Positions 4,814 through 31,073 of a stretch of 33,344 nucleotides of DNA are shown here, one piece after another. The stretch's first letter is position 1. Each line of letters opens with the position of its first letter. The translations under genes were made by a program, and so were the position numbers. The notes below the pieces were generated by a model. It searched no databases, was not told where the DNA came from, and saw only the letters and a program-made list of their open reading frames with translations. Source of the DNA: Nemertoderma westbladi (taxonomy: Eukaryota > Animalia > Xenacoelomorpha); assembly GCA_032718475.1 (NCBI GenBank), contig JAUCBJ010008639.1:1-33344 (forward strand), given 5' to 3'.

Positions 4814-5246
4814 ACCGGTACAGTACAACATATTGCAGCTCAGTTTGCAGTTCAGTACCTGAATAGTTATTTTTATTAATATTTTTATATTTCAGTGCAG
4901 AATACTGTATATGTGGTGGAACAAAAAAAATAGCTTAAATCTTAATTGTGCTACTGTATCAGTGCAGAATTCCGGTACTATAATTGTGCTCTGTGTGTGT
5001 TCTGTTTTTTAATATTCTTAGGTTTTATAAATTTCACTTGTTATAATCCGGTTTATACTGTGATATGAATAATTAATTAATTAACATGGTTCGGTTATGG
5101 TAGGTTGGTTTATCGTATATTGTCTAGATTGGAAGTGTAGCCTATTATTATATATGATGGAAAAATAGGAAGTGAATATAAATAAGATTTACCATACTTC
5201 TTATAAATTTTATATTCGACTTTGAATAAATCATAAGGGGAGGGAA

Positions 5247-6484
5247 TGTAAAAGCTTTTGCGGACATAACAAGTCATTTTTCCCGCAATGCGCAGTGTAG
5301 GTGCTTTTGCGGACATAACAAGTCATTTTTGCCGCAATGCGCAGAATACTCTAAAATAGCCCTGAATTTATTCCCCTACGTGACGGGAAGAGATTAGAGC
5401 CCAGATGACGAAATCTGTCAGCTGATTTCCTGTAGACGTGGAATCTCTTTGTTCTGCTCAGCCAATCAGAGCGATTTTCACTTTATTTCTGACAGGGGCC
5501 TATGGAAACTTGCGCAATGCATTACTGTCTTTGTTTACCTTTCTGAGCCTCAGAACCGGCTTGGAATCTTCTGTACTTCTGTGCAGAAGTTTCAGACTTT
5601 GGCCTAAACATCAGATGGCTTTGATTATAAGAACGTAAATCTATTATCTGACGAACCAACACCTGGATCACCGGCTCGCACCTTCCATTATCCTTCCTGA
5701 CCCACCTACCAACCTTCTGACTGACAATCCACTCACCACCCGTCTCACCGGGCCTTCATAAGTAACACATACTGACTGTTCACCGCATTATTTTACTTCT
5801 GTCTACGGTCTGTTATTAATTGTTGTTATATTGATGTATATTGCTGATATATTTGGAGAATACCGATAAATAATCATAAAACCCCCAATCTTCTTGATTA
5901 CTGAAGGTAAGAGGAACAGGTTACCAGTAGCAACTGCGACTTAAATTATAGTGGTTTTTGTGTTAATTAAATGCTATTTCATAATCCCTACAAGTGTCAG
6001 TTGCGATCTTCCTTATATATGATCAAATTCAGTGACGGTCGGCAGATTAGTGCGCAGTAGTGTGAAGTAGTGTGAGGTCGTGTAAAGTAGTGTGAAAGAT
6101 AATAAAACATCTCCTAAAGAATGCGCTATTTACGAAACTCTGTGGCCATCTAGTTGTGATTAGTATAAGTGATAACTCTGTTTTTATACTTAAAGCGCCA
6201 CGTCCTAAAGGAACTGTTAATATTTCCCCGAAAGTAAATATATTGTCAGAGATTATATAGTAACGATCAATCGAATAATACAGTAGGTCTACATTGCAAT
6301 AACTTTCAAGGCTTCCGAATCCAGTCTCCCTTAACTGTGGGTGAATGATCGCGCACAGACTGGCTTCGGCTGATGTAACTTCAGTACACTAAATAATTGA
6401 TATAGGCTAAAGTCGATTTATAAACAAGAGGACAACTAAAATTGGCAGGTTAAACTGCTAACTAAAGGTCTAAAGGCGCGAACA
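5247..6484 (+). repeat. 5' LTR (1,238 bp)
   Basis: TGTAAAAGC...GCGAACA. About 17 substitutions and one 4-bp indel versus the 3' LTR (counted by eye). It opens with a 49-bp tandem duplication (5247-5344) and contains CCAAT (5462), TATAAG (5626), 10-bp GTAGTGTGAA repeats (~6057-6096) and AATAAA (6101). Confidence 0.97.
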
Positions 6485-6496
6485 ATAATAGATTTA
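6485..6496 (+). promoter_or_regulatory. Candidate self-priming primer-binding site (non-tRNA)
   Basis: ATAATAGATTTA follows the LTR's terminal CA directly and is the exact reverse complement of LTR bases 5636-5647 and 22367-22378. There is no TGG-type tRNA PBS at this position. Confidence 0.6.
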
Positions 6497-7144
6497 AGTT
6501 TCTTTATTGCACCATAGGCAATAAAGTCGAATGTACTGGTCGGATGGTAAGCTGTAGGCCTAACTGCCCAACTAGCCGAACCGGTGCTTACAGGTATAGG
6601 TACAGCAGTATTATTTGATTGTGATAATTATATACCGGTAGGTCTTGATATTTAATCGGGGACTGCAGCCCTGGTTTTTTATTGGGGTTTTACTTATTTC
6701 TGTCAGTTTTATTTATCTGTAAGTGTAATATTGAGCAGAAGGCGTGTAAGCCTGCTCAGATTGTATAAATAATTTGTAGGCCAGATTGTTGTCTAGCTGT
6801 TGTTAGGTCTGAGGCGATTGCAGTGTATGTAGAGTATCTGTCCGATAAAGTGCTAGTTAGGAAGGTGGGGGCATCCAGTGTTGTAAGGTAAATCCCCCCC
6901 CCCCCCCCGAAAGAATAAGTCGTACTACTTGGTTAAAATGCCTACTAACTAACCATTTCAGAGTCTGCATATACTGTAGTTTATTTAGGCTTGACAGTAG
7001 TCTGCCAGCATTTGGTCTGTATTTTGTTTAAATAGTCTGCACAGGTAGCGTAATATTTATTATTCAGAGTCTATGCGAGTATTCGCAACCTCCAACTCCC
7101 CAAGTTTATTCCTACAGTAATTGTGCTTGTTATACATACCGTTA

Positions 7145-7267
7145 TAGTTAAATTAACCCCAGTACTACATCAGGGCTGCTTGGCGTAGGTAAAGATTGGT
7201 GATTTTGTGCTCCGGTCACTCCAGCAGATACCGTGGTTCTTTTGGCTGTTCAAGTATATTTAACTGC
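7145..7267 (+). repeat. ~120-bp segment shared with 24975-25096
   Basis: Direct repeat, roughly 90% identical, with an identical core CTCCGGTCACTCCAGCAGATACCGTGGTTCTTTTGGCTGTTCAAGTATATTTAACTGC. Confidence 0.9.
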
Positions 7268-8714
7268 TGGTTATTTGTTTTATAAGTACTTGTACCTAAT
7301 TTAGGGTTTAGCGTACAGTGCTTTCCGAAAGTAATTTAGTGTGTAGGCAGTATAGTTGTGTTGTAATGTGGTTAATAGGCACGTTAGCTCTGGTTGGCTT
7401 CGGTAATTAACCTCTAGGTAAGGACACTCCTTGTACATAACATAGTACTTATAGAGCTAAGACTATAAGTCGTCAGATGGTGGTATTTTCTTATCTGGAC
7501 AACGCAACTTACTTACTACTGCTTTATTGTTTTTCCAATACCATAGTTTCCTGTCAGTTTGTAAGAACCAGAAATTCTAACTCCTTGTTAGGCTGGTTTG
7601 TAGATTTCTTGTAAAATTACCCTAAAAATTGTATGTGTAACTTTTTAGTGTTTATTTAGAAGATTGTAATCTCAAACTGTAATTGTAAGTAATTTGTAGT
7701 AATAAGTAACTTAGTAGAGTGGAGGTGTCTGTATTGGTGTCTCGCGTGCTACTTGTTGGACACTAAAGCAGATAGTTCTACCTTGCTGGGCGTGCAGCAT
7801 CTGTGTAGTGACCCCTTATCCAGAAACAATAACATTTATTTCAAATATTGTCAAAACCCATTATACGGGTATATATATTATAAATCAATTCAAACAGATT
7901 TATAAAATAGTAGGCCTGTTATACATCAATTAGGTCTTAATATCAGTTGGACTACTGCTTAATAACAGTAATAAGTAAAAGGGAAGAAACCCTAAAATTC
8001 AGAAATTCAGTTATTATAAAATAATTGACATTACCGGTATTTACGGTGGGCTTATTATATATATTTATATAAATTTAGGCTGAAATTATATACCGGTATT
8101 CTGTGACTAATCCTAGTCTATAATAATACTTATATATACTATAAGTGTATACCGGTATTTTAATATTATATATATATCACGTTACACTGAGTAACGGTAT
8201 CGGTAATTAATTACTAGGCTTACAGTTGATACTGAATTACTAGACTTGCTTTAACTGTCGTTATAGTAGTAGGCATTCAACTGTAAAATAAATCATGGCT
8301 GACACAAAGCAAACACTGTCAGATAGTCTCCTAGAAAGAACAGTCTGTGACTCAGATAGGAGTATAGAACATCTGAGACCAAAGTCCAAGTCCCCTCCTA
8401 CTGTAAGAAAAGTCATCCCTACAGTAGTAGTATCAGGCCCTAGGCTAGTAAAGCACCATAGGTCTATCATAGGCACTAGGGCTCAAGTCAAGCGGGACCA
8501 AGAGGCAGCTGTTAAACACATCAACACCTAAACCGAGAACTTATTTCTCAACAGCCTGATAACTCTAGCAGTTCAGACACCGAAGAGTTGACACCCGAGA
8601 TCGGAGCAAGGATGGCAGAAGCGGTTTATCCGGATCCACTTCTAATTCTTCCTGGAGCCGTACTCACTAGAGTGTTGATAGCTGTGGAGGAACATCAAAT
8701 CGATTGGGCGAGAA

Positions 8715-8718
<4 letters not shown>

Positions 8719-8749
<31 letters not shown>

Positions 8750-8792
8750 TTATTTATAACGCGCCTTTTAAGGGCAATAAATCAAGGCGCAG
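8719..8792 (-). mobile_element. Tiny 5'-truncated L2/SINE-type 3'-tail insertion, in frame within gag
   Basis: The minus strand reads GCGCCTTGA...AAGGCGCGTTATAAATAA(ATT)n. TSD GAAGTAA at 8712-8718 and 8793-8799; net gain 81 bp, which produces the poly-Asn run. Confidence 0.75.
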
Positions 8793-9554
8793 GAAGTAAG
8801 CGATCGACCAGGGACAGTTATGCGGGATATACGATGGAGGAACTGAGGTCCATTGTAGAGGCGCAATGGAACTTCCCCGGACCCAGACTCCTATTTAACT
8901 TATCGGAAGCTGCCTGGGAGGACTTATACAGGATGGGAGTAGTAAGGAACACTCGAGATCCAGCTGTGTGGAAGAGGTCGGCAGCAGGATATGTCCAGGG
9001 ATTCTTCAGTTCTTTGGAGCGATTAGAAGAACACCTATTTCAACAACGCCAAGGACCTCAAGAGCAGGGATAGCTGCTTTATCAAGTGCGAGAACGAATT
9101 TTACGGATCAGACTACTCCTTTCGGCCTTTGAGGAAGCCTCGAAGAGAAGCCAAGACACATCGTTGCAAGTGGCTGTAAAAACTTGGTTCCAACGGGTGA
9201 GTCTTAAAGTCCAGGGAACGACACAATGGAAAGCTCAGCTAACCGAGCGCATGACCCACGGAGAATCAACAGATGCTACCTTTTCTCAGGTGGAAGGCGA
9301 AGCTACATTCGAGAAACCTCAGAAGAAGGATGCTATTGACATTTATCTGTCGGACTATCAACAATTTATAGGTGTCAAAGTGTTAAGGAGACGGCTAGCT
9401 GGACTTCACCCTAATAGTGAGGGAGCCAAATTTGTGTCAAACTCGTTAGATGCGGAAATATTAGCCGCGGAGCAGGCTAAATTTGATGAAAGCATCCTCA
9501 TCGCTATGGACCAAGAAGAGCAGATAAAGAAAAAGCAAATAGAAGACCGAAGGT

Positions 9555-9700
9555 CAGCGGCCGTGGCAGAATCTGAAAGGAAAGCGGCAGCGGCAGAATC
9601 TGAAAGGAAAGCGGCAGCGGCAGCGGCAGAATCTGAAAGGAAAGCGGCAGCAGCAGAGGCTGAAAGAAAAGCAGCAGTGGCTGAAGCAGAAAAAAGAGCA
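9555..9700 (+). repeat. Coding tandem repeat, (AAAAESERK)-like x~5, predicted coiled coil or single alpha helix
   Basis: Repeated GCGGCAGCGGCAGAATCTGAAAGGAAA units within the gag N-terminal extension. Confidence 0.9.
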
Positions 9701-12700
9701 TCTGAAGAGACAACCCAACTAGAGTTGGAAAATCTTCAAGCGAAGCAAGATTACTTAAATAAACGGAGAACAGCTACTCAGATGCAGCTGCTGAGTTGAT
9801 CTACTCCCAGGAGACAGGGATTTACATCCTCTGATGAGGGCGATACAACAGATCCTGAAGGTAGAGGAAATAAATCTCGTTCCAGTGGACGTAGAAGAAC
9901 GCCACACCGGCAGAAGTTGCCTAATTTGCCTCCGGCTGTGAGAAGGCAACTAGCTAGTGTAGATTTAAGTTATCCTGAGCCTACAGACCAAAGTATTAGA
10001 GTAGAAAGACTCCCTACTATAGTAGATGAGCCCGAAATAATTAGGCCCGTCATTGAAGTCACTCCAGTACTAGAGACCCCTGTACTTCCAGAACCTAACT
10101 CTAAATTCCCTTTGCACAGTACTAAACTACCTATGCCCAGTAGACTAGCCCCGGAATCACTCCCGGTCCTGGACGCCGAGCAAGACATAAATGACTTGTC
10201 TCCCGTCGTCCCCACGCGTCACCCGGCTACCATGTTGGCGGCTCCCGCTTCGGCGGTTGAGTGGGTAGACGAGGGACGGTGGGGGATGGATCGCCTGCTC
10301 GGGCAGCTGGAAGACCATAAAAGGAGGTCTTCACAGCAGGTCCGTGAATTGGAAGGGACTGTTCAGCAGTTAAAGGGAACAGTAAGAGAGAGTAGGTTAG
10401 AGTTGCAAGAAGTGCAACAAAGTATCGCTTTAGAGCGCGATAAATTAGTAAATATACAAATGGGTATACCACCACCCCCTGTAACAATATGTCAACCTGT
10501 TAGGTGTGAAGTATTTCATGCGCAAGGTGTGGAGCCTACACGCATCTATACTGCTAGTGAAGTAGAAACTCGTATAGTAAACCCTATTAAGGGTAATTAT
10601 AAACCCTTTGATAATGATATCCCATACAGATCTGATCATAATCCGAGAAATTTATATACCGATAACTCGATATTAAATAATACAATGGCTCAAGAAAGTT
10701 TTACACGTAAAATGGCTAGAACTGAAGCCCGTCAAGCGGTAAAGGTGGGAGAGGTCGTCAAGTTCAATGGAGATGAGATGAAATGGTTACCTTTTAATGA
10801 ATATTATAAAGATAACATACAGAACTCTGTACCATCTAACGGAGAGAAACTTAGATTCCTCATTGAGTGCCTGGAAGGACCTCCCAAGTTAATGGCGTTA
10901 AAGTTTATTGGACATCCAGATGGATTAAGACAAGTTTGGGATACACTAAACATCAGGTATGGTAATAGGACTAACATAGCTAGGTACTTGTATGCGAAAT
11001 TAGTAGCGCCCCGAAAGTTTCTTAGCAGCGGGATTATAGAGTTTTCCGATGAGATTCAGGAGATCTGTAGACAGCTAGATTGGTTAGGTAAGTCTCAGGA
11101 ATATCAGAGTTCTATGGTTGTTGGAGCCGTAGCATCTACTTTGCCAAAAGGTGGAGTAGGTACTCGTTGGGACAAATGGGTTCTCTATATAATGGACCAG
11201 CAACAAAGAGACCCTACCATGGCTGATCTCATGTCATTCTTAAATGGTGAGGTAAGATTACAGCTCCTAAAGCAGTCCCGAGAGAAGACACCGGAAAGTA
11301 AGGTGAGTGAAAAACCCGTTTCTAGGAGAAAGGTAACACCAGTGTGTTATACGGACGATGGCAAAAGCCAAACCTCATACGAGGAAAACAGCGGTAAGGA
11401 CACTGAAAGATCTTATTATGTCAATAAAATGAGAAAAGACGTAAGTAAATCTAAGTCTCAAACCAGTGACAGGAGAGAACAGGTAACAACTCCTCCTCCT
11501 AAGAAAGCCCGAGGAAAGAACAAGTGTGCACAACACCACACAGGTTAAAGTAAGTAATATCAAACCCAAATGTGCATTGTGCGACGGGCCACATTGCTTG
11601 AGTGGGTGTGATGAATTCTTGAAGAAATCCCTTAAGGATAGACGTGATGTCATGTGGGATAAGCGGTTGAGTTATAATTGCCTAAGACGAGGACACCAAC
11701 AGCGGACCTGTTACTCAGATGCTAGGTGTGCAATGTGCGGCGCAAAACATCATATCTTGCTGCACACAGAATTTGACAGAACCCGCACGAGTCAGGTAAG
11801 TGAGCCCGAACTACATATCCAATTCAGTGATGTGAACGACCCTGACCACAGCTCTGAGATGGAAGGATTCTACACGGACGAATTCTCCGACGAAAATGAA
11901 TCCTGTTATATGATAAACACCGCGGAGTATCGAGCACTTACGTATGAGACTGAAACTGACAATGAAGATCCTCGACTGACTATTCCGGACCGACAACCAT
12001 CTTGGAAAGCGCCAACTTCCTCTGTCGGAATCCGGGAATTTCCTGTGGTTCAGCTGAGAGTCCATGGGCTAGGGACGAGCCTGATAGTAAACGCCCTCCT
12101 TGACTCCGGCAGCACAGGTACATTCATTGACAAAGAACTAGCCAAAGACATCTTTGCTGGACAACCCAAGTTCCGAACTAAGTTGAACCTTTCAGGAATT
12201 ATGCAGGTTTGGAAATCCACAGTAGCCACAGATTACTACGTGGGTGCGTTGTCCACTCCTCAGGATGAACTAGGAGAACATAGCGTAAGGTCAGTAAAAA
12301 TGGTGGTGATAAAGAACTTTGCTACTAGCCAAGTGGAACCTTACAACTGGGATGAAGACCATTTTACCCAGCAACATAATATACCTAGATTCAACACTGA
12401 CTATCCAGGGGTCCAGATATTAATGGGCCAAAATGCGCACGAAGCGCTTGAGACATTAGAAAAACGGCCTGCTCGACCGCAACCATTACAAACGTACGCG
12501 TGAAGAACGAGAGTAGGTTGGTACTTCACTGGACCTTCCCGTAGAACTCTAAGGGAAAGACTCCCTAATGAGAGAGTACATCAGGTGAGTGAATGGGAAG
12601 AAGAAATCAGTGAGGGAGAAACCACACCTGAGGGAACACCATACTCCTCAGACAATGACGATATTAACCAATTGTATGACGAGGAAAATACAATCGACCT

Positions 12701-12734
12701 CCTCACCAACAATCAAGCTTGGATGACTAAAGAG

Positions 12735-14010
12735 GTGAGGTCTCTATAAGGGTGTCCAAAACAGGCGGCGGCGGACTCGTGAGGGTCTAGGGACACGTTA
12801 AATCGATTTTATAGTGCAAGGGAGTTACTGAAGGCCCTCGTGTCTAGCGAACCATGAATCAACATGGTGCCGTGGTACCGTCTAGTCGGCCTGTTGCTGT
12901 ACTGGTAGTCCTGTACACAGTAGAGGTGGTGGCTTGGTGTGATCTGTGGTCTATGTGGCAGGTCTATGTTTGGTATGTATGAGTTGACCAGACTCTTTAC
13001 TGTCTCCGATCGGCTGCCAAAACGTGTCTTTTCCCAGGGTAGCACTATTGGAATGGAGGTGTTGCATCGGAATGGGCAGGATTCTGATGATTCTGTTGGT
13101 ACTACTATTGGAATGGAGGTAGGACCTGGAATATCTGCTGCAAGGAGGGGATGGTGTTGTAGTATGGTCCGAATAAATGATACTCTGGAATCTGTGGTTT
13201 GTGTGTGGACGATCAGTGGCAGTTTGCTTAAGCTTCCTGTTGCTGTGGGTACGTGGTATACGTGAGTGTGTGTATGGCCACTGCGAGTGAGTATGGGAAA
13301 CCTTGCCAGTCGGTTCAGTCGCCGCTGGTTATTAGTAGGACCATATCTTTACTGCGCCCCAGCATACTTTGTGCACACAAAGTTATTTTGCCCTGACGGC
13401 AAAATAAGGTACTCTCGACTCTTTTATCAGTCAATACAATTTTGTCCCCTCTGATTTTGTCACCGATTTGTCTTTCCCGATTATGTCCTCTGTGTGTGCA
13501 TGGTATGTGTCCGATTTTGTGTTTACCGTTGTGTACTTGATTTCGTGAGCATCTGTTGAGTACACGTGTACAGTGACTAGTAAGTGGTGACTTGTTCTTA
13601 GCTTTTAAGCTAGACAGTATTGTCTTTCAATACTGCCGACGAGGCGGGTGAAAACGTGTCAATATTCCATGTTGGGTAGCGCAAGCCCACTTGGGACAAG
13701 ACCGTCGGTTTGGCTCAAGGGCGACCTTGATGCTCGATCGCTATCGACTGGTCCACCCGCCGGTTGATTCTCTGAGTTGGCTCAATGTACAGTCAGGCCA
13801 CAGTAAGTTGACAGTAGCCGACCATCTGGCTACACCGACGAGCTGTGCCGGTGTGATCAGGGGATTGAAAATTGAACCTGGGAAGCATCGGGCTACCCTC
13901 CGGCCCGGTCTGATAAAAACGGAGTCAGACTGGCCCCAAGGGTGGTGGGACAGCGTCCGCCTCGTGGGTGCGCCTCGTAGAGGATCCCAGAAGGACGCAA
14001 GCGAAACCAA
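12735..14010. mobile_element. 1,276-bp non-coding insertion between PR and RT, with no conventional TSD
   Basis: Removing GTGAGG...ACCAA joins ACT AAA GAG to GTA AAC TTG TGC (TKE-VNLC) in frame. Only GT is shared at the two junctions. The insert contains several hairpins. Confidence 0.75.
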
Positions 14011-17000
14011 GTAAACTTGTGCCATCTTATCGATCAGCATGGTGGACAATTTACTTATAATGACGAATTGAACGAAGTGATAGATCGATATAATAACAAA
14101 ATCCATGATGAACACACCGTACGATTCTTTACTCAAGAAGCCGTGGAGCCTAATTCCTACAACAAAGCTTTGTCCGTCGAGGAAGTGAGAGCCAAGCAGA
14201 TTCAGGAAACGACAACTCATTATTTGAAAGATGAAGGTCGCTATGAGATTGGTCTTCCGTTCAGACGGCGAGAACCCAACTTTATAAATAACCGACCTTT
14301 AGCAGAAAAAAGAATGAACCACGAATGTATTATCTAACACATCATTACGTTCCCAAGCCCGGTAAACCCAACAAAGTCCGGGTAGTGTTCGACGGCTCCG
14401 CCCTTTACATGGGTCAATCCCTGAACTCAGAACTGTTGCCGGGACCCAACTTACTCCAATCCTTGTTGGGAATATTATTAAGACTGCGGCAATATTCTAT
14501 CGCTTTTGCTTCGGATATAGAAGGCATGTTCTTACAAGTCAAGGCGCTGGATAGGGATCGAGACAGCCTACGATTTCTGTGGTGGCCTGAAGGAGACCTC
14601 AACCAAAAACCGGTGGAGTACTGGATGACCATCCAGGCTTTCGGGATCATCTCGAGTCCCTCGAACGCTTGTTCAGTAGTGCTGATTACAACCGAGACGC
14701 CTTCTCTAAAGCGGTTATCGACAACATCAAACGGGATATATACATGGACAACAATTTAAAGTCCCTCCCATCGGTGGAAGAAGCCATTGATGTTGCCAAA
14801 GCAATGGTGGAGTGCTTGCAATGCGGTGGATTTCGACTAACCAAATTCACTAGTAACTCCCGTGAGTTTCTGGAATCGATCCCGGTAAAAGACCGAGGTG
14901 TTAAAGATCTAGACCTCATCAAGGACGATCTTCCGGAAACCAAAACACTTGGTTTAAAATGGGCCACGGAGAGAGATATCTTGTTTTTCCAGTTAAAACA
15001 GCGAGATAATCCAGTTAGAACTAAACGGATTTGCCTAAGTATCCTGAGCACTTATTTCGATCCATTGGGATTTATTAGCCCAGTTATATTGGTTGCTCGG
15101 AGCTTAGTACAACAAATGTGGCTTGAAAACCACTCGTGGGATGATCCACTTAAGGGAGAACTACTAAAGAAGTGGTTGAAATGGGAAGATTCTCCACCAT
15201 CCATCGAGAACTTTAGGATTTCCCGTTCATATTTTGGTCACGTTCTCCCCACGTATTCCTATCAACTCCATGTGTTTGGAGACGCCAGCGATATGGGAAT
15301 AGGTATAGTAGCCTACCTGAGAGTTGAAACTCCAGATGGAATTAAAGTTGCCTTGGTCACCTCTAAGGCCTTGATAAACAACAAACTACGAGTTCCTCGA
15401 GCGGAGTTAAAGGCGGCTCTATATGCTACAGCCATCGGCCGGAATGTAACAGAACAGATCGACTATCCACTGGAGAAAACTGTCTATTGGACTGATGCTT
15501 TACTCGTTCTGGAATATATAACCAATGAAGTCTGCCAGTTCAGCGTCTTTGTTACCAACAGAGTAGCCATTATACTTAGTCGCTCTAATGTAGATCAATG
15601 GAGACATTGCCCTGGGACGATTAATCCAGCCGACATCACCTCTAGAGGAGCAACCCCTCAAGAACTGATAGATACTCCAGACTGGCTAGGTGGACCCGAC
15701 TTCCTAAGTAAAGAAGAGGATGAATGGCCTCCTCATCTCACCACGGCTGAGATTAGACAAGCCAAGGGAGCGGAGAAAGTAAAACCTATAACCCAGATGA
15801 GTAAATCAAAGTTATTTAAACCCGTGATAGATCTGTCTGTATTACACATCTCCAGGGACGACGCTATGGATCTAAACTCCCCCACCACGAACAAATCTGT
15901 TATAGAAATCAGAGAAAGAGACTGGAAATCTGGAACACTAGACATCTCGCAAGGACTCTCACCTCTCTTGCAGATAGCGATAAATCATTATAGCTCCTGG
16001 AATCGACTTTGTAAGGCCGTTGTGTATCTCAAGAGATGTTTCCATCATCACTATTCCAGGACGAAGATCGCTAATGATACCGCTCCAACAATATCCGAAA
16101 AGGTCCATGCTATTAACGATCTGCCCACTTACAAAGTGTCGGATAGGTTTCTGATGGAGAAGATCAGTTACCAAGAGCATGAGGAAACCAATAAACAGAT
16201 ACTGAGACTTCTGCAATGCTATGAAGATCCCAATAAGTATTTCCTGTTGTTGAGAAATCCACAGATGCGCTTAAGGGATCGTTTCTCTAGCACAATGATA
16301 GATGGGTTAATACGTGTTGGAGGGAGACTAACTAATGCTCCATTGTCCTTTGACACTAAGTTTCCCATGCTCAATAGAAATCTTGAAATACAAATCAAAA
16401 TGATTGTAGATTTTCACAGTAGGCTTTACCATGCTGGTAGAGAACGAGTTCTTAGCGAAATTCGAACTCGCTATTATTTCCCTAAGCCCCGTAGAGCTCT
16501 GAACCAAGTTCTTAGGAACTGTATACCCTGTAGGAAAGCATTCAGTAGGCCTTTAACACAGCGAGAGGCAGAATTACCTAGGGAACGAGTAAGCTTCTAT
16601 GAACCACCCTTTACTAATACTGGTGTGGATTTATTTGGCCCTATTGAAGTATATCGTGCTAGGACTATAGTCAAGCGATGGTGTGTCATCTTTGTCTGTA
16701 TGACTTGTAGAGCGATCCATCTAGATATGGTGAACGATCTATCTACCAACAGCTTCATACTGAGTTTACGCCAACAGATCGCTCGCTTTGGAACTAGCAA
16801 CACGATGACATCCGACAAGGGAACGAACTTCATTGGTGCCAATAATGAGATCAAAGCTTATGTGAAAGATTGGAACCAAAGACAGGTAGATGATCAGCTA
16901 AGGGTAACAGCATCTAGCTGGACCTTCAACGCCGCCGACGCCCCTTGGTGGGGAGGAAGTTGGGAGAGATTGATAAGGAGCGTGAAGACCGCATTTCACT

Positions 17001-17627
17001 TTATAGTGCCGTGCTGCGCGTATCTCACTGACGAACGTTTGCGGACGTTAATGGAAGAAATTGCTGCCTATCTTAACGAGAGACCGCTTATGCCAGTCTC
17101 ATCGAGTCCCGACTCCCTAGAAGCGCTAACACCCGCGCATTTCCTACTAAAGAAACCTGTAGCCATGCTCCCGCAATCGGAAATCACGGACGGAGACGAA
17201 TACTGCCGACAAACTTGGCAACTTATGCAGTTATTATCCCGTCGTTTCGCTGACCATTTCGAAAAACATTATCTCCCTACGCTACCACTTCGAACAAAGT
17301 GGTTTGCGCAGCAAGAAAACGTCAGCGCTGGAGACATGGTCCTTATTGTGGAATCAGATCTTCCACGAAAGCGGTGGCAGACGGGTCGTATCATCGAGAC
17401 TCATATATCCGATGATGGTTTAGTGCGATCAGTAGAACTCGTCGTCATGCGACGTAACTTTTAAGAAACCTGGAATTGTATTCGAAACACAACAACTCAA
17501 TCGCCCAGTTGGTAGTTTATGTTTACTGGAAAGAGACCGAGAACTATCCGGAAACTATGGAAGGCAAGATACTCTTCCCATGACCACCTCCCTAATCCAA
17601 CAAACATCTAGGGACTCCTCAATGTAA
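14011..17627 (+). pseudogene. pol: BEL/Pao pol: RT, RNase H, integrase and C-terminal domain
   Basis: GRYEIGLPF; YYLTHHYV...KVRVVFDGS...GPNLL...DIEGMFLQV...LRFLW...FGIISSP; YMDN (for YxDD); LHVFGDAS...PRAELKAA...WTDA...NPADITSRG; H-H-CxxC; VDLFGP...SDKGTNF...WERLIRSVK. A frameshift at ~17461 continues to RPVGSLCLLE and a stop at 17627. There is a deletion near 14320 and a frameshift near 14670. Confidence 0.96.
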
Positions 17628-18168
17628 CAGCGTATGGAGTGGGTGTGTGACTGACTACATTATTTTGTATTTGTTTTTATTATTTTTATATTTATGTATG
17701 TATTATTACGTAATTTTAAAATTATAATCGTTTTGTTTAATTTTATTTAGTAGAATATTATTTTAGCGATTATTCAGTAGATTAGTGCAATATATATTCG
17801 TGTTTATTACTTAATTACTTTTTTTATATATTTCGTTTAACGGTGAGAAATAATCCATTTTCTCTTTCCTTACTGTCCATATCATATTTTAAATACGTGA
17901 CTACAGTAAGATGAAATGTCCGTACTTATGAAAGTACAATACCGCCCCTACTATACATACTAATACACCTACCATACATACTACCATATATTAGGAATGC
18001 AAAGTTCAGATCCTCGTGTCTCGGCTAAACCAAGCTCTGGGTAGACCTTGGAAACGACTTGCCTCTTCTCACTGACATTGCTTCTTGCAATATTGCTCTC
18101 ATACCATATATTAAATGATACATATAGTAGAATGATGTCCACTTAACAGTAGCGTAAAAATGCAAAAT

Positions 18169-18580
18169 AAATCTGTTAAACCCTTTGACCATCTGAATTT
18201 CTAGTCGATTAAGATATCGCGGCACCCACCGATATACTTGAAAGACAAAATTCTAGAATCAGTGGTTAACGTCCCCAGACATGTTCTGGAATAGATAGGT
18301 GCCCATCTTGAATATTAAATATTTAATAAATATTTATAAAATCTATTAAAACAAATGTTATAATAGAGTAAAAAGCAGACAAATAAACTCTAAGGAGTTT
18401 GTAAACCAAGAAAATTTATAAATAAAAAATCTGTTAAAATTCAGATCCTTTAAAATTCTAGTCGATTAAGATATCGTAGCACTTACCGATACTCTTAAAA
18501 AGACAAAATTCCTAGAATTAAGGATCCTAGTCCCCAGACCTGTTCTGGAATAAAATTGTGTCCATTTTAATATCAAATAA
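18169..18580. repeat. Diverged ~150-bp direct repeat pair in the pol-ORF3 spacer
   Basis: AAATCTGTTAAA...TTCTAGTCGATTAAGATATCG...AAGACAAAATT...GTCCCCAGACmTGTTCTGGAATA at ~18169-18320 and ~18428-18580. Confidence 0.85.
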
Positions 18581-19380
18581 TAAAATTTACGGGAATAAAT
18601 TTTAAATTCATATCCTCTCATGAATTTGATAAATTTGATAAAATTTATACAATTTATAACATTCCCAAAATTCCATTAATTAATAGATCATGGGAGCGGA
18701 GATTCACCCTATTAAGTATATTAGTGTGCGAGAATCTCCAGTGTATAGTCAATAGCCGATAAAATTCATAAATCATGTATAAAGGGGAATATTGACAATT
18801 AAAGAATTACTATTAAATGGCATCCCAGATCTGTATGCATGAGAATTACCCTAATTCTACTGCTAGCTTTCCATAATGTCACCATAGCAACAACCACGCT
18901 AGAATTAGGAGCGAGTTAAAAGAACAATAGAAAGCTTGCCCCATTGAATAGCATACGGAATAAATAGCACCCTGCTAGTATCCAGGGATACATAATAATA
19001 ACGTGGCATTCTGGAAGGCACTTGACTAACGGACAAATGGCCCGAATGTGTACAATTTGTGACAGGTGTGTGGAATTTGTGCATTTATAGGTGAATGTTA
19101 CTACTAAAGTATGATTACAGTAGCGAGTCGCAGTTGTGAAAGTTACCCTGCCTCTGTAGCAAGAACCTGAAGTAATTCTAAGCCCTTGGGATGGACAGTG
19201 GAGTGACTCACGCTGGTTATTGTTGTTGTTGTGTAGCTACTACGTTGGTGAGAGGCACAGCGATGACAGTACATCAGCGCTGAGGATCTTGTGCTGTCCG
19301 GGGGCATTCAGGGGGAGGCAGCGACGACCGCTAGCCTAAATTATAATTAATTATAATAGCAATAAACTCATATAGCAGCT

Positions 19381-21900
19381 ATGACGGAGTTGATAGAAGA
19401 TGATCTTGGTATCAGGGAGCGATATACCCAGCCATTGCAAGCGTTTGTTGATAGTTTAATAAGCCATCATAAGCCATCAAAACCATAATTCATCCCTCGA
19501 TGGTTCCCCATTTTGGAGACAAACTCTTCGCCACGGTACAACCCCAACCGGTTGATATCAACCTAAGATCTAGAGATCTTATAGCTGACGCTCCTATGTT
19601 ACAACGTCCGCCAATCGAGGCCACTCGTGTTGATGGCATATTGACGCTAGCGAACGCTAGCGATATTGACGGTTGATTGACGCTAGCGAATGTGCCACCT
19701 TATGGCATCCAGTGGGTATGACCATAGAAAACGCCACTAAAGAGTGGAACAAAACTCTTAACGTTATCGAAATGTATGGAGTTGTCACTTACGATAACAA
19801 AGGTAGCGTTCTGGTTGGAGAACTGGGAACTACGCGAATGATACACATACGTGGACTAGCTGGTTCTACCCATGTGTTTACTCGAGCGTGTTCCGACGTG
19901 ATGATTATTCTTTTGAGACTCTCACCGAGATACAAAAGAAACTCCGACATGGACAATTCGAACTCGCACAGCGTTACGTCACTGATACCGAGCGCAAACC
20001 GGCCATGGGTATAGATGGATCGATGTTACCCCAGCCAGTGCTCGAGATGTTGTTTAACGAAAGAATCCTTAAAATCGGCTCAGCTGTTTATGGAGATCTC
20101 CAGAATGACTTCAGGAACATGGAGAATATCCCATATCCTTTCGTAGACACCCAGCTGATTGCTCCCTGGGCAGAAGGCCGAGGTTTCTTCCGAACTATAT
20201 ATGCCAATACATCCAGCGGCATCAATAAAGTACAACAAACCTCCATCGGACATCTTGCCTTCCTAGAATATGGATGGAATTTCAAAGTCGGAAACCCTAT
20301 CAGCTATCAACAAGTATATGGTGATCATTATTCTCGATTATACTTCGACGGACCATTAACTGCACCTGGTGTTGTTTATAGCTTCATGAGTGTTCCACTT
20401 CGTCCCTCATTAGCTATATACACTATCTTCAAGAACGCCGCACTTGTCAGTTGGCTAGCCGATGTGTGCAGTCGCACTATACGCGCCCATCCCTTGTTAC
20501 TCGGAACCAAACTCGCCAAGCTAGATGAACACAATAAATTCATCCGATTCGAATGCTTTAGGCGCTTTCTGACTCTGTTCCGTAACGTTGATAGTCAGTT
20601 CAAGGACCGCGCTCTGACTAAGCTCAGCCTAAGAGACTCAGCTGCTGAGTGAGAAGTTAGACAGTGCTGGATTCGCCATTTTCAAGGACGTTTGTATACA
20701 GAACTTACATTCCTCTGTTATACAAAGACCCCGAATCCACACGCAGGTTATTCTATCGTGGAAGTCCAAACAGTGGGTTTGCTTGAGGAGACAGCTAGAC
20801 CTACCTCAGCTATGCAATTGGAAGATGAACCAATTTGCTTAGAGTCCGAGGAGATTCAACCCACAGCGCCCAGAAGCAGTGACAACGACTACGTCCTGGA
20901 ATGGTATCAAGGTCCACAATGTCTCACCGCATATGATTATCGGCATGCCAATTATGTTTCTAGGAAACGTTGCCGATTATGCGCATCACGAGACCACTTC
21001 ACCCCGGTGGACTCCAGCGTACCCTGCTCCTACTTTTAAGATCAACCTACCCTGGAGATCTATTGTGCGTATTGTAGACTCAATAACTTACACACCCTCG
21101 CAGTCTGCCCTCAATTTATGACTCAATGCCATCATTGCCAGTTTAAAGGACACGCAAGTTTTGATTGCCCTTTCAACCGAGATATAGAAAGCGTAGACGA
21201 AATGGTTGCCCTTTGCTATATTCGCGTCTGGGAAGCTAACGCAGATCTCCATTGCGAATCACGTCATCGGTACTACCCTGGACGTGCCTATGAAGGAGTC
21301 TATGCATTTTACCCATATCTCTTTGCTTCAGTTGAGCAAAAATCTCGCACACCTAGCTACGAGTTAATGAAGCGTGTTGGCGAGAATATTTCGACCAAAT
21401 TTGTTCGCAAGTATCTTAGGAATATTAATCCTAACGACCTTAATTCCTATAACTTGATCAACTTCATCCGTCAAGATCCGGAATATGGTGACTTGTTCAT
21501 GAACTCGCATCCAGAACTACAAGAAGTTCATAGACGACCCTATGAATATAGAGCCCGCGAACGTGAGTTGGAAAGAACCATCAAACCGAGGAAATTTCTC
21601 ACTACTCACAGTCCGCCTACCGCTCTCGTGCAAATGACCCGTCAGGGACCAGTAAGAGCTGCTGTCCTGAAACGCGCTCTAAAGGTTGTTCGACCTTGTT
21701 CCACTGAGGTTGGTATCGATCAACCGGGTACCTCAACCGGTGGATATACCGACCGTAATCCTAAACCTTCCGATGCAATTGTATTGCACCCCTCCCCCAG
21801 GAGTTATAGCCCTCCTAGTAAAGTGGGTCATCCCAAAGAGAAAAGGACTCTTACTAGCCTCAAAAAACTTCGTAAACGCCGTTCACGAAAGAAGGACTAA
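19381..21900 (+). pseudogene. Extra ORF3: DEDDy-like 3'-5' exonuclease domain, three CCHC zinc knuckles and a basic tail
   Basis: ORFs 19888, 20692 and 21118 are one frame broken only by stops at 20650 and 21037. Motifs: VVTYDNKG (ExoI-like, D at 19793, upstream frame); LPQPVLEMLFNERILKIGSAVYGD...FVDTQLIA (WRN/EXD ExoII block); PLRPSLAIY (ExoIII-like); knuckles at 20971-21168; C-terminal KKLRKRRSRKKD. The start at 19381 is tentative. Confidence 0.75.
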
Positions 21901-21969
21901 TCGTTTAGAGTATTTTTATATTTTTGAAACTGTGATTTTTATATTTTATAGACTTAAATCCCATTTTCT

Positions 21970-21977
21970 GGGAGCGG
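21970..21977 (+). promoter_or_regulatory. Polypurine tract
   Basis: GGGAGCGG directly abuts the TGT of the 3' LTR. Confidence 0.8.
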
Positions 21978-23211
21978 TGTAAAAGCTTTTGCGGACATAA
22001 CAAGTCATTTTTCCCGCAATGCGCAGTGTAGGTGCTTTTGTGGACATAAGAAGTCATTTTTGCCGCAATGCGCAGAATACTCTAAAATAGCCCTGAATTT
22101 ATTCCCCTACGTGACGGGAAGAGATTAGAGCCCAGATGACGAAATCTGTCAGCTGATTTCCTGTAGACGTGGAACCTCTTTGTTCTGCTCAGCCAATCAG
22201 AGCGATTTTCACTTTATTTCTGACAGGGGCCTATGGAAACTCGCACCATGCATTACTGTCTTTGTTTACCTTTCTGAGCCTTAGAACTGGCTTGGAATCT
22301 TCTGTACTACTGTGCAGAAGTTTCAGACTTTGGCCTAAACATCAGATGGCTTTGATTATAAGAACGTAAATCTATTATCTGACGAACCAACACCTGGATC
22401 ACCGGCTCACACCTTCCATTATCCTTCCTGACCCACCTACCAACCTTCTGACTGACAATCCACTCACCACCCGTCTCACCGGGCCTTCATAAGTAACACA
22501 TACTGACTGTTCACCGCATTATTTTACTTCTGTCTACGGTCTGTTATTAATTGTTGTTATATTGATGTATATTGCTGATATATTTGGAGAATACCGATAA
22601 ATAATCATAAAACCCCCAATCTTCTTGATTACTGAAGGTAAGAGGAACAGGTTACCGGTAGCAACTGCGACTTAAATTATAGTTTTTTTTGTGTTAATTA
22701 AATGCTATTTCATAATCCCTACAAGTGTCAGTTGCGATCTTCCTTATATATGATCAAATTCAGTGACGGTCGGCAGATTAGTGCGCAGTAGTGTGAAGTA
22801 GTGTGAGGTCGTGTGAAGTAGTGTGAAAGATAATAAAGCATCTCCTAAAGAATGCGCTATTTACGAAACTCTGTGGCCATCTAGTTGTGATTAGTATAAG
22901 TCATAACTCTGTTTTTATACTTAAAGCGCCACGTCCTAAAGGAACTGTTAATATTTCCCCGAAAGTAAATATATTGTCAGAGATTATATAGTAACGATCA
23001 ATCGAATAATACAGTAGGTCTACATTGCAATAACTTTCAAGGCTTCCGAATCCAGTCTCCCTTAACTGTGGGTGAATGATCGCGCACAGACTGGCTTCGG
23101 CTGATGTAACTTCAGTACACTAAATAATTGATATAGGCTAAAGTCGATTTATAAACAAGAGGACAACTAAAATTGGCAGGTTAAACTGCTAAAGGTCTAA
23201 AAGCGCGAACA
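21978..23211 (+). repeat. 3' LTR (1,234 bp)
   Basis: Direct repeat of 5247-6484, followed by TSD GGGAA. Confidence 0.97.
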
Positions 23212-23339
23212 GGGAATATTCTTCCACAGTTAGGCCAGGCACAAATTCTGGCAACTTATTTCCAGCCCCCCCCCCCCCCCCCCCCCCAGAACAATAATTC
23301 CCTGAGGAAACTCCAGTAGTCATTTAGCTACCATTTAAG

Positions 23340-24974: not shown

Positions 24975-25096
24975 TAGTTTAATTAACCCCTGTACTACTT
25001 CAGGACTGCTTGGCGTAGGACAGACTGGTGATTTAGTACTCCGGTCACTCCAGCAGATACCGTGGTTCTTTTGGCTGTTCAAGTATATTTAACTGC
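24975..25096 (+). repeat. Second copy of the 7145-7267 segment
   Basis: Direct repeat of 7145-7267. Confidence 0.9.
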
Positions 25097-25433
25097 AAGT
25101 TATATGTTGTATAATCATATATTAAATCGGCTAGCCTACTGCTATACTGTTACTGATTGCTTTACATGACTGCATGATTTTATATGATTTTAAAAAATGG
25201 CAACGCCAGATTCAGATGAATTTTCCTCAACAATTAGCACGATTATATCGATAATTAAGACAGCTAAAGAGAAACGTAGCACTTCAAATGATGACAAACG
25301 CGCGATGCTGAGCAGCCTCACTCGTTTGAATGTTTTATATATGACGTCTGTAAGCCGAGTGGCCGATGCCCATAATGAAACAATACTCGTGAAGAACGAA
25401 ACACTTACAGCAAAAGATAAACTAATCGCACTA

Positions 25434-28400
25434 CTACTACTACTAGGTCGAGCGAACTCGGACAGTGGAAATGAGATCCTTCCAGGCTTCGCGATTCTCC
25501 ATAGTTGTCGTAATTTCGTTTCTCCCAAGTTCAGTATCCCTTTCAAGTTGATCTATATATGTTATGGCAGGTCGTCCACGACTACGCTTTCCATGAGTTG
25601 GTTGCCAGAGAAGTAGATCTGGTATGACCTCGTCTTTACTTCACCAGCAGTGCCCACTGAATCTTAATCTGCGTTCACGGAGGGTGGTTGATACAGGTGG
25701 TATTGTACCATAAAGCTCGGCGTTTGTCATGTGTTGTCTCCAGCTGATGTTTAGGGCTGCCCTTAGTAGTCTTGTGTAGCAACCATCAATTCGTTGTTCA
25801 AGTGATTTAGTCAGTGTCCAGGTCTCACCCCCGTATAAAAATACACTTTCCACTGTGGCTCGATAGAACTTAGTCTTCAGGTGCTTGGAGAGATCTGATT
25901 TCCAGATGGTATCCATTTTTGATAGAGCTACCCAAGCCTTTGCTTTCCTAACTTCTATGTCCTTTTTGATACTCTCTATCCATGATCCAAGGTACTGGAA
26001 GTCATCGACCTTCCTTAGTTGATTATTATCAATGGTTGTCAAGTTTCCATCAACATTAAAGGTCATGAATTCGGTCTTGGTAGCATTTATATGCAATCCA
26101 ACCTCCTTAGCAGCCCTCTCCACTTTATTTAGTAGAAGCTGTGCATCTGCTAGCGTATTAGAGAGCAGGGCGATGTCATCCGCAAAGTCGATGTCTGTGA
26201 CTGTAGTTGCCGGATATCTACTACTTCTGCATTCTTGAAGTGTGAATCCCAGATCTTCACCCTTTGTGGCCGTCCTCATTGCGTAATCCAGCACAATTAC
26301 AAATAGTAATGGTGCTAATGTGTCACCTTGCAGTACGCCAGCCAGGATTGAGAAATACTCAGTTTCACCATCTGGTGAGAGTACCTGCGCTTCTGTGTGA
26401 CAATATAACAATCCAATGCCAGCAACAATTACTTCTGGTATTCCATAAGCTCTTAGGATTTCAAGCATTTTACCTCTATGGATGGAGTCGAATGCCTTCT
26501 TGAAGTCCACAAAAGTCATAACTGCGGGGAGATTCTTTGACTTAATTCCTTCAATCAGTCTCTGTAGTGCAAGTATCTGAGCTATTGTTGATCTACTTGG
26601 TCGAAATCCATTTTGGCTCTTACGCAGTAGTTTCTCTATGTGAGGCCTAATCCTATATATAATCATTTTATTGTATATTTTGGCAGCTACCACAAGCAGA
26701 CAGATCCCACGATAGTTTGTTGGTATGCCGAGGTCTCCTTTCTTATGGAGAGGCTTTAGTTGACCTTTAGTCCAAATTGGTGGTGGCTTTTCCCCTTTTA
26801 ACATCCGGTTGCAAACATTCAATAATGGTCTATTTAGCACTCCAGTTTTCCATACCTCCGCTGGGATTTCATCTAATCCACTCGCTTTATTATTGGACAT
26901 GCTTTTAATGCTTCTTTGGAGTTTCTGTTTCATTAGGTAGTGTCTTGTCATATATTTTCCTTGTAGGGCTGACCTCGATGTTTGGTGGCTGCCCAAGCAA
27001 GTTGCTGAAGTGATTTTTCCACTTCCCAACACGTTCTTCAGGACTATCGGCTTTGAGGCGCCCCTTTGCACAACTTTTCCGACCAGATACCTCATTTACA
27101 GTTTGCCAGGTAAGTCTTGATTGTTGCTGTATGTGAGCAGTTGTAATTGCTTCAGTTTTATCCTGTATGTACTTTTCCTGGCTGTTGTTGTAGGCCAATT
27201 TAAGATCGTCCTTAGCTTTCTCAACCTTGTTAATGTTGTTGGTTGTTCGGTTTTAACTTTGTAGGCTATCTTAAGATCTTCTCTCTTACAAGTAACCTCA
27301 GAGTTTTGCCATGGCACATACTGTTTTCGTTTAGGTTTCTGGGGGATATGCCTCTTAGCTGATTCCTTGTGGGCTGTTATTGTATTCTGGTATATTGAAT
27401 CAGTGGATTGGTCTTCATCCATTGACTGAAGTGCTTCAAAGCGGTTTTGAACTTCTACTGTATAAGCATCCTTTACAGCATTGTCAGTTCTGAGTTTCTC
27501 CCAGTCATAGTTGATTTGCTTGCTTGTCCTGGGTTTGCTGGCTCTCAAACTGAGTCTGATCTCTGCAGTCACAATTCTGCGGTCCGAACAAATTAGGTTG
27601 AACGAGCTGTATGCCTCGCAGTTGATGATGCTATTTCTCCACTTTTTGTTTATAAGGATGTAATCCAGTTGTGCTTTGGTTCCATTAGGGTATTGAAAGG
27701 ACCATAGCTTCCCCTTACTCTTTTCGAATGTGTTGTTTGTTGGTATCAATTCACATTCTTCCATTAGGTCTAAAAGTAAGTACCCATTTCTGTTAGAACT
27801 GGTGTTATAGGTGTAACCCTTGATGTCTTCTGGGCCAATTTGCGCATTCAGGTCACCAGCAATGACTTTAACATTGTGTTTCGGGATGTCCTTAATAAGT
27901 CCAGTCAGTTCTTCATAAAACTTGACTGCTTGTTCTGGCTCTGATGCATTGGTTGGACTGTAGCAACATATAACTGTTGTCTTGGGATTCCCATCAAATG
28001 TTGCGATCATAACCCTGGAATTTATAGATTCGATGTTGTTTAGGGTCTTAAGTGCAAATGGGCTTAGCAGAATTCCTACTCCAACAATTGATGCATTGGC
28101 CGAGTTTCTTACTGCTGAGCTTGTTACCAACGTCCATCCATTTCCAATGTCATTGTACTTTATGGCAGTGTCTTCATGACAAATCCGATGTTCTTGGATG
28201 CAGATGATGTCGATGTTATATTCCATTGCCAAAGCGACCATGTCACCCTGTTTGCTCTGTGCTTTCAGCGTGCGTGCGTTCATTGTAGCAATTTTTAGTG
28301 TCTTTTTACATTTCAACAAGTTGGTTCCTCTTTCCTCTCTGTCCTCTGTTCCAGTAGCCAATTTATCGACCCCAGCCTGGTGTACCACTGAGGGACGCGG

Positions 28401-28827
28401 TCCTTGTTGACCCGGGCGATGACCGAGCCGGTATTTCTCCTGGAGGGTTCTCATACTCATATCTTTCAGTTGCGGGAGTAAACTGTTTGTGGTCGCAACG
28501 CGCTACAAGCGTCATTGCAGTAGGTCGCCGTTGGTTGACTACCTTCTGCCGACCTTGTCAGCATGTCTAGCCGTTGGTTGATTACCTTCCGTCTATCCAT
28601 GGCCTACAGCCCTGCTGCCAACTGTAGGGGTCCATTTGTTACACCCTGAACCAAGTGTGCCTCCTGGGTTAGGTTACCTAACACTAGTAGAGGAGCATCC
28701 AGTATAGACAGGGCGGGGCTTGTATCATCTCTAGTGCAGATGCGTATCAAGCCTTTGCCTTCAATGGTGCCCTAGGCGCTATAGCCCTCAATGACTTATT
28801 TAGTTGACGGGGCTGAACCAATCCACT
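25434..28827 (-). mobile_element. Full-length RTE-clade LINE (~3.4 kb)
   Basis: TSD CTAATCGCACTA at 25422-25433 and 28828-28839; (TAG)n tail; ~370-bp 5' UTR; single APE-RT ORF. Confidence 0.95.
25443..28460 (-). pseudogene. RTE APE-RT ORF, with frameshifts around 26900-27250 and a premature stop at 25641
   Basis: APE: IATMNARTL, ICIQEHR, GDLNAQIG, QLDYIL, SDRR (for SDH). RT: YRGICLL, QNGFR, FVDFKKAFDSI, GVLQGDTLAP, FADDIAL, YLGS. The reading continues past 25641 to ...VRVRST*. Confidence 0.93.
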
Positions 28828-30828: not shown

Positions 30829-31073
30829 GCATCCCTAGGTATTATTATTATAAAGAGCGTCAGCCTGCGTTTAATAAATATATTTTAATACAAAACAGGT
30901 CGAACGCAAAGAGGCTTATAATGAAGACGAGTACTGCATTGATTATATTCCTATAAACCACCTGGCTTTGCATATTGAACGTGCGTTTGGAAATAAGTTC
31001 GTGCTACCCTTCCGTGGGTGGTAGATGTTGCGGTTATGTATTGGTGGGTAGGGGGAGGGGGGGGGGGGGGGGG
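30829..31073 (-). repeat. Dispersed repeat (copy B), inverted relative to 1800-2044
   Basis: Reverse-complement match to 1800-2044, including the poly-G/C end. Confidence 0.85.

Follow-up and report, generated by a model that had tools for sequence, protein, structure and literature searches.

Why would a BEL/Pao retrotransposon carry, in the env position, a long open reading frame that reads like an exonuclease followed by zinc knuckles? The question is raised by a 33,344-nucleotide stretch of the Nemertoderma westbladi genome (contig JAUCBJ010008639.1, forward strand), the whole of which we analysed and refer to as the window. A first-pass annotation, made from the letters alone, had described this third open reading frame (ORF3) as a DEDDy 3'-5' exonuclease with three knuckles. 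We examined the element that contains it, the protein that it would encode and the sister copies in which it recurs.

The host element and its third reading frame

The element measures 17,965 bp from LTR to LTR; its gag-pol is broken, and ORF3 lies on the sense strand, inside the LTRs.

5242..5246, + strand: left target-site duplication GGGAA, from sequence comparison of the flanks
5247..6484, + strand: 5' LTR, 1238 bp, TG...CA, a direct repeat found by self-comparison
8295..11800, + strand: gag region, with stops and frame changes
about 10763-11143, + strand: DUF1759 within the gag region (Pfam, E 7e-11)
at 11571 and 11727, + strand: BEL-type knuckles within the gag region
11801..17464, + strand: pol, broken by stops and frame changes
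12102, + strand: aspartyl protease DSGS in pol (E 0.0012)
about 12723-14003, + strand: probable foreign insertion of 1.3 kb within pol
14741, + strand: RT region in pol, catalytic motif degenerate
about 15020-15496, + strand: Peptidase_A17 in pol (E 9e-36)
about 16397-16540, + strand: integrase H2C2 (Integrase_H2C2) in pol (E 8e-9)
about 17213-17446, + strand: DUF5641 in pol (E 8e-18)
17465..19380, + strand: AT-rich spacer of 1.9 kb between pol and ORF3, with no + strand frame longer than 63 codons
21970..21977, + strand: polypurine tract GGGAGCGG, directly before the 3' LTR
21978..23211, + strand: 3' LTR, a direct repeat found by self-comparison
23212..23216, + strand: right target-site duplication GGGAA

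The Pfam domains run from gag to pol in the order DUF1759, Asp protease, Peptidase_A17, Integrase_H2C2 and DUF5641, with the RT motif region between. Because this order is the BEL/Pao signature, we assigned the host element to that superfamily, as the first-pass annotation had done. The LTRs, the target-site duplication, the polypurine tract (PPT) and gag followed by the PR-RT-RH-IN order all fit, and the host is a BEL/Pao element (Belpaoviridae). The coordinates likewise uphold the annotated setting of ORF3, on the sense strand, inside the LTRs and 69 bp before the PPT: its final stop occupies 21898-21900, and the purine tract begins at 21970.

The two LTRs are 98.6% identical: 11 transitions, 6 transversions and 4 gap columns separate them (K2P 0.014). 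Such a young pair around so damaged an interior points to a non-autonomous lineage that moved in trans. For the primer-binding site (PBS), which in BEL/Pao is complementary to tRNA-Arg or tRNA-Gly, no TGG directly follows position 6484, the first lying at 6537; the copy is decayed, and decay may account for the absent PBS. Neither tRNA genes nor Rfam families were found in the whole window. The spacer contains a duplication with a 257-bp period (18166-18321 / 18424-18579). Judged by eye, a TATA-like run and a candidate splice acceptor stand just before 19381.

Reading frame and domains of ORF3

The features of ORF3 are given below; P0002 is its one convincing protein relative.

19381..21900, + strand: ORF3 pseudogene, probable start ATG 19381, with several frame changes before about 19903 and one frame thereafter
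19670..19900, + strand: likely N-terminal portion of the exonuclease domain, read in a different frame
19972..20472, + strand: DEDDy/RNase D-like domain, homologous to P0002 (29%, E 2.5e-7)
20026-20172, + strand: ExoII core, with its Asp at 20095
20971..21168, + strand: three CCHC-type motifs (20971-21027, degenerate; 21064-21108; 21127-21168)
21832..21897, + strand: basic C-terminal tail, 12 K/R in 22 residues

The three open reading frames listed at 19807-20652, 20653-21039 and 21040-21900 are a single frame interrupted by stops at 20650 and 21037, as had been proposed. Two stops in the 697 codons of 19807-21900 compare with a mean of 34.9 and a minimum of 17 in 5000 shuffles. The accompanying claim of some 840 codons in a single frame did not hold: ATG 19381 shares the main frame, yet 11 in-frame stops precede 19807. 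Upstream, open stretches lie in other frames (19381-19485, about 19473-19673 and 19670-20014), with short, local duplications around 19465 and 19630-19690. Sister copies, seen as short Logan contigs from four runs that represent at most three samples, differ in length from this copy near 19901, 20646 and 20744. Near 19901, therefore, the 19670 frame probably runs on into the main one, and the stop at 20650 is probably part of a frame break, in which case this copy may give a false reading of 20650-20745. ORF3 as it stands here is a pseudogene; the gene itself is real.

Across 19807-21897, the best 19-residue Kyte-Doolittle mean is 1.27, short of an env-like anchor or fusion peptide, and without a transmembrane segment ORF3 is not an env substitute. 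What it resembles instead emerged from a search of 1.84 billion (1.84e9) representatives, which gave two matches. The convincing one (E 2.5e-7), P0002, is a protein of 648 aa on a single 9.4-kb contig, 29% identical over residues 56-222. Its layout is that of ORF3: an exonuclease leads, by way of a long linker, to three CCHC knuckles and a basic end. Even with the ExoII core left aside, the stretch towards ExoIII aligns to P0002 (score 78, 0/3000 shuffles), and the region after the knuckles gave no significant ORF3-P0002 alignment (p 0.84). We rejected the other match, P0003 (E 2.9e-4), a repetitive acidic trypanosomatid protein that aligns to the acidic linker only. Searches of proteins by word index brought up no relative of ORF3 and, queried with P0002, returned P0002 alone; scans of metagenome and viral contigs gave no matches, and P0002 showed no similarity to the Pol of the element.

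The motif LPQPVLEMLFNERILKIG...GD...FVDTQLIA, part of which had been read earlier as an exonuclease signature, is present in the ORF3 translation. Its ExoII Asp, at 20095, aligns with the ExoII Asp of RNase D, and on the ExoII core the NCBIfam RNase D model TIGR01388 scored E 0.0054 with the read-through protein and 0.0015 with the isolated piece. We built a two-row profile from ORF3 and P0002 and ran it over 301 proteobacterial genomes: 117 matched at E<=1, and RNase D accounted for 29 of the top 30 loci. The 26 bits obtained with the resulting RNase D profile are partly circular, since its rows were chosen by a profile containing ORF3; the independent value for RNase D similarity is the TIGR01388 match. 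The window's own exonuclease part had no Pfam or PDB-sequence match and nothing useful in PHROGs, and we took as noise a glutamine synthetase match at E 1.4 and one to ORC4 at E 0.7. With the same piece, the best Atlas score was 0.78, unrelated and under the useful range, and a single-sequence model of the window protein (pLDDT 32) yielded no fold. In Pfam, neither ORF3 nor P0002 gave an HRDC row at E<=10, although a missing match is no proof.

With hhalign, P0002 aligned to the profile of RNase D across 124 columns that begin at ExoI and reach the SDW region (probability 56%), and it matched DNA_pol_A_exo1 weakly (E 0.2). The AlphaFold model of its domain is poor (pLDDT 39). All 21 of the Foldseek rows listed for this model down to rank 28 were DEDD exonucleases, from the families EXD2, TbRND, Egalitarian, EXD1, RNase D, RRP6 and Pol I; the best, EXD2, reached E 1.7e-3, and none fell below 1e-3. 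VIA-align also placed EXD2 first (Z 8.1, rmsd 3.0 over 86 residues; next 5.2). These fold matches cover well only the N-terminal half of the model. The nearest Atlas cluster to P0002 (score 0.86, a lead only) carries PF01612 in 100% and zf-CCHC in 61%.

Could the likeness to RNase D be a chance helix-strand-helix match in a protein of another fold? Sequence similarity spans only about 45-50 residues, there is no Pfam match and ExoI is not placed, all of which would be expected of such an accident. Against it, four routes concur (NCBIfam, the genome scan, Foldseek/VIA of P0002 and Atlas of P0002), and hhalign extends the similarity well beyond the ExoII core in P0002; we regard a chance match as extremely improbable. 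Each line is weak individually; a DEDDy fold becomes very likely once these sequence and model comparisons are combined. The annotated DEDDy 3'-5' exonuclease-type domain is therefore upheld as RNase D-like by NCBIfam and the genome scan, and the DnaQ/DEDDy fold similarity that was sought was obtained, though through a low-confidence model of P0002. A specific tie to Mut-7, Nibbler and EXD1 was not borne out, the best matches being RNase D and EXD2.

Reading through the stop at 21037, we verified the three Cys/His motifs and their spacings as first annotated (Cx2Cx4Hx9C, Cx2Cx5Hx4C and Cx2Cx4Hx4C). The first lacks the canonical Hx4C spacing, which P0002 has, and zf-CCHC_3 matched the ORF3 knuckles at E 1.5e-4, short of its curated cut-off. 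The basic tail appears NLS-like from its composition. Both knuckles and tail, already noted in the first-pass annotation, recur in P0002, its distant relative.

Sister copies, catalytic residues and selection

An element-borne gene should be present in other copies. Three sequencing runs contain this stretch, and three others were included on the strength of their labels. Sister contigs placed on the whole element covered all 30 bins (four runs). Over 19300-21990, the runs contributed 8379, 6076, 3482 and 140 contigs, again with all 30 bins covered in 4/4 runs; many contigs in the ORF3 stretch were <90% identical to this copy, some down to about 81%. Coverage by diverged contigs in every run means that ORF3 is no one-off insertion, and the segment is present in sister copies. 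In the ORF3 stretch of one run (X1), at least 30% of sister-contig depth differs from this copy at 231 sites, far more than the age of the LTRs would lead one to expect, which supports the inference of a trans-mobilised lineage. Joints in the sister contigs often delete parts of pol, and several end at 17463-17489, right at the end of pol. Pol-deleted derivatives may keep ORF3, a link that short contigs cannot make.

The sister copies also bear on the active site. ExoI has three candidates (19793, 19895 and 19984) in a frame-broken region; none aligns significantly, and comparison with the N-terminus of P0002 gave p 0.28-0.74 in every frame. The site proposed earlier, VVTYDNKG at 19793, is not supported: it sits in the 19670 frame rather than the main one, it has no significant alignment, and its Asp precedes the conserved LP by 78 codons, compared with 45 in P0002. 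The Asp at 19895 precedes LP by 44 codons, and this candidate, which sits at the frame break itself, appears to fit the spacing better. We abandoned VGMTIE (about 19712), which had no support as ExoI. In P0002, SIDVE aligns with the ExoI of RNase D, and the acidic set at aligned positions is D/E/D/E. Its ExoIII motif, YxxxE, aligns to Tyr 20419 and a Lys codon, 20431-20433, in this copy. Given Lys at the ExoIII acidic position, we do not class this copy as an active DEDDy exonuclease.

At codon 20431-20433, however, sister contigs disagree with this copy over >99% of their depth in each of the 4 runs (14328/14389, 59035/59314, 64805/64805 and 365/365). By this sequence comparison the ExoIII lesion is private to this copy, and 'catalytically dead' is thus not transferable to the family. 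The annotation had found the ExoIII aspartate not evident; the motif can be placed here, with Lys at its acidic position, and the suggestion that the protein may be catalytically dead is not supported, since sister contigs differ at the codon and P0002 is acidic there.

For selection, we used the best-supported 40 of 410 differences, a small and non-random set in which 33 fall in 19903-21900; ranking by support should not favour any codon position. Third positions account for 20/33, and 19/33 are synonymous in the ORF3 frame, against 8/33 and 7/33 in the other frames. The neutral expectation is 31% synonymous under a transition-weighted model (binomial p 0.0013), and omega is about 0.33. The synonymous excess, measured on 33 of these 40 differences, is a signal of the purifying selection that had been looked for.

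These data speak to the simplest account of ORF3, that it is a neutral passenger, a captured piece of a host gene hitch-hiking and decaying. The ORF3 copy is broken at several places, and collections of proteins, metagenomes and viruses yielded nothing close to it, as might hold for a passenger. The gag-pol of the same copy is just as broken, though, diverged sister copies contain the ORF3 stretch, differences within it show the synonymous excess, and the domain order is kept in the 29%-identical P0002. We consider a passenger quite improbable, and we conclude with considerable confidence that ORF3 represents a selected, family-wide accessory gene with a DEDDy fold and knuckles.

Proposed roles and comparison with known systems

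What would such a gene do? Our preferred reading, held tentatively and somewhat short of probable, is that the third gene of this high-copy BEL/Pao family encodes an RNA 3'-end trimmer used against host small-RNA silencing. The protein would comprise an RNase D/EXD-like domain, then zinc knuckles, then a basic tail, with the full DEDDy fold predicted from the low-confidence model of P0002. The 1.9-kb non-coding gap after pol implies separate expression, by analogy with rotifer ORF3s, presumably from a subgenomic or spliced RNA. The basic tail, in ORF3 as in P0002, may bring nuclear import, and the knuckles may tether RNA for the exonuclease, as in trypanosome TbRND. The active site would be retained in the family, as D/E/D/E in P0002 and a private lesion in this copy suggest. 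A nuclear trimmer of this kind would remove or mis-trim silencing RNAs. We guess, a shade less securely still, that its substrates would be antisense or piRNA-type guides and precursors directed against the element. More doubtful is a wider version in which an old mobile gene for a nuclear exonuclease-triple-knuckle protein, whose layout the 29%-identical P0002 shares, was independently adopted by BEL/Pao and acts as a suppressor of small-RNA or exosome-based silencing.

The fold matches also allow a role in which catalysis is dispensable. ORF3 could be a pseudo-nuclease adaptor of the Egalitarian, Exuperantia or EXD1 type that routes element RNA, binding it through the DEDDy pocket and the knuckles for nuclear export, germline transport or packaging. 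Egalitarian and EXD1 are among the fold matches of the P0002 model, knuckles and a basic tail suit RNA binding and nuclear traffic, and the canonical ExoIII Asp is in neither sequence (Glu in P0002, Lys in this copy). Egalitarian reportedly binds a signal of the I-factor retrotransposon and functions without its catalytic residues, which it retains yet does not need (bioRxiv 10.1101/2025.08.03.668247). P0002, however, retains four acidic residues at aligned positions, the ExoIII lesion of this copy is not common to sister copies, and rotifer ORF3s retain an acidic set reported as DEED (PMC5408684). We consider an adaptor rather unlikely.

An active exonuclease could instead serve inside the particle, trimming the primer or the 3' ends of RNA or cDNA, or removing mismatched ends. 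DEDDy enzymes process structured RNA ends and ssDNA, and 3'-end processing of element RNA has been proposed for the rotifer ORFs (both PMC5408684); EXD2 is the best structural neighbour of the P0002 model; and the want of a TGG straight after the 5' LTR could hint at unusual priming, although the missing PBS may equally be explained by decay. ORF3 is, however, a separate ORF beyond a 1.9-kb spacer and would not be delivered as part of Gag-Pol, and most BEL/Pao elements replicate without such an ORF (PMC8742986). We judge a role inside the particle unlikely.

If silencing RNAs are trimmed or degraded by it, the silencing-directed trimmer that we prefer would give animals a rare example of counter-defence encoded by a transposon. 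The case is weakest in three respects: the copy studied is dead, a single relative was found, and the function is a prediction. P0002, an intact natural relative, makes the enzymology directly testable.

Among known proteins, the architecture recalls TbRND of Trypanosoma brucei, whose CCHC fingers hand single-stranded RNA on to its RNase D domain (PMC7797062). Both combine a DEDD exonuclease with CCHC fingers and, as far as Pfam shows for ORF3, do so without an HRDC domain; TbRND is among the P0002 fold matches, and the top Atlas cluster for P0002 (Euglenozoa) is probably TbRND. It differs in being a cellular mitochondrial gRNA trimmer with a short linker and four fingers, with no sign of orthology. 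EXD2, EXD1, Egalitarian, Nibbler/Mut-7 and the WRN exonuclease belong to the fold family of the P0002 model, but none has a reciprocal sequence match or a knuckle tail of this kind, and the data indicate no single donor among them.

The element shares with Belpaoviridae that have an env-like ORF3 its LTRs, PPT, PR-RT-RH-IN order, BEL-specific Pfam domains and third-ORF position. It is 18.0 kb long, against 4.2-10 kb in the ICTV profile, and that profile describes the third genes of BEL/Pao as env-like only (PMC8742986), whereas ORF3 here is not env-like. A survey of BEL/Pao elements (de la Chaux and Wagner 2011, PMC3118150) likewise has env-like third genes only, with 0 occurrences of 'exonuclease' in its available text. 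Outside Repbase, GyDB, subscription titles and supplementary files, where such an ORF may be annotated, our literature search turned up no exonuclease ORF in BEL/Pao elements, and no DEDDy ORF3 with three knuckles appeared in the literature searched.

DEDDy ORF3s are already known from elements of bdelloid rotifers, namely Juno1/2, Vesta2/5 and Athena/Terminon, where they are described as separate, spliced units (Rodriguez et al. 2017, PMC5408684); a review repeats this account (PMC6431247). In the rotifer study, copy number did not clearly follow the type of ORF3, a point against our preferred role. Nematode Cer1, for which the first-pass annotation had named a DEDDy ORF, has 0 occurrences in the accessible text of Rodriguez et al. 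2017, and such an ORF did not appear among the results listed by a literature search. In the literature searched, enzymatic third genes of LTR retrotransposons are reported from rotifer elements only. The comparison with ORF3 here is by description, not by sequence. Like the rotifer genes, it is a separate third ORF after pol, in the env position, with an RNase D-like DEDDy domain and without transmembrane segments. Unlike them, it resides in a BEL/Pao host, which the accessible text of PMC5408684 does not name for such ORFs, and it has three CCHC knuckles and a basic tail, whereas that text mentions a Cys-His-Cys motif in some Vesta ORFs only. What appears new, against the literature searched, is a DEDDy-plus-triple-knuckle accessory gene in BEL/Pao. 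A selected, family-wide gene of this kind in another superfamily would mean that elements have come to this solution more than once, rather than in rotifers alone; and if the proposed role in counter-silencing is right, the DEDDy ORF3s of rotifer, Gypsy and BEL/Pao elements would be a recurrent counter-defence module.

Internal deletions and non-pol sequence in the pol region

Internal deletions of pol recur in the sister copies of the BEL/Pao element, as seen in contigs from several sequencing runs that join across 12667–15583, 15780–17486, and 16067–17465, with some deletions stopping exactly at the end of pol. These deleted forms are non-autonomous derivatives of the element. Roughly 1.3 kb of non-pol sequence also lies within pol (12723–14003), and a single contig joint from run X2 bypasses it. 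The ORFs of this segment had no match in a Pfam search. Because the segment is itself deeply covered by contigs, it may be another repeat.

The spacer between pol and ORF3, the third-gene pseudogene, contains an imperfect duplication (18166–18321 and 18424–18579; 257-bp period, 77% identity) that is deeply covered in all runs. This duplication possibly acts in cis, either in packaging or in the expression of ORF3.

The 5' end and repeats inside and outside the element

No primer-binding site starting with TGG was found immediately 3' of the 5' LTR (6485–6540), the first TGG occurring at 6537, which may reflect either decay or unusual priming. The 5' flank (5237–5246) is a purine run resembling the element's polypurine tract, and the GGGAA target duplication falls within it. 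A 141-bp piece of the 5' leader (7145–7285) recurs outside the element at 24975–25114 (91%). Other repeats and retrotransposon remains were as follows.

Repeats and retrotransposon remains in gag and elsewhere in the window
8716–8749, TAA microsatellite in gag, encoding poly-Asn
9528–9701, tandem 27/33-bp repeats in gag, encoding AAAESERK units
3–1058, minus strand, second RT fragment, non-LTR retrotransposon remains (E = 2e-7)
25641–28502, minus strand, non-LTR retrotransposon remains separate from the BEL/Pao element, endonuclease and RT (RVT_1, E = 3e-35)
1800–2044 and 30829–31073, dispersed 245-bp repeat, two copies in opposite orientations (93%)

Possible origin of the ORF3 knuckles

By eye, ORF3 knuckles 2 and 3 (21064–21168) look like Gag knuckles 1 and 2 of the same element (11571–11770), sharing the pattern CA-C...H-L--C--F, but the linker between them is much shorter in ORF3 than in Gag. 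These two ORF3 knuckles could possibly have arisen by duplication of part of the nucleocapsid. P0002, a distant ORF3 relative of 648 aa, is a singleton encoded on a contig of 9.4 kb. Its exonuclease motifs are complete, its linker is Arg-rich, and its three knuckles weakly match Air2 (E = 0.064) and retroviral nucleocapsids.
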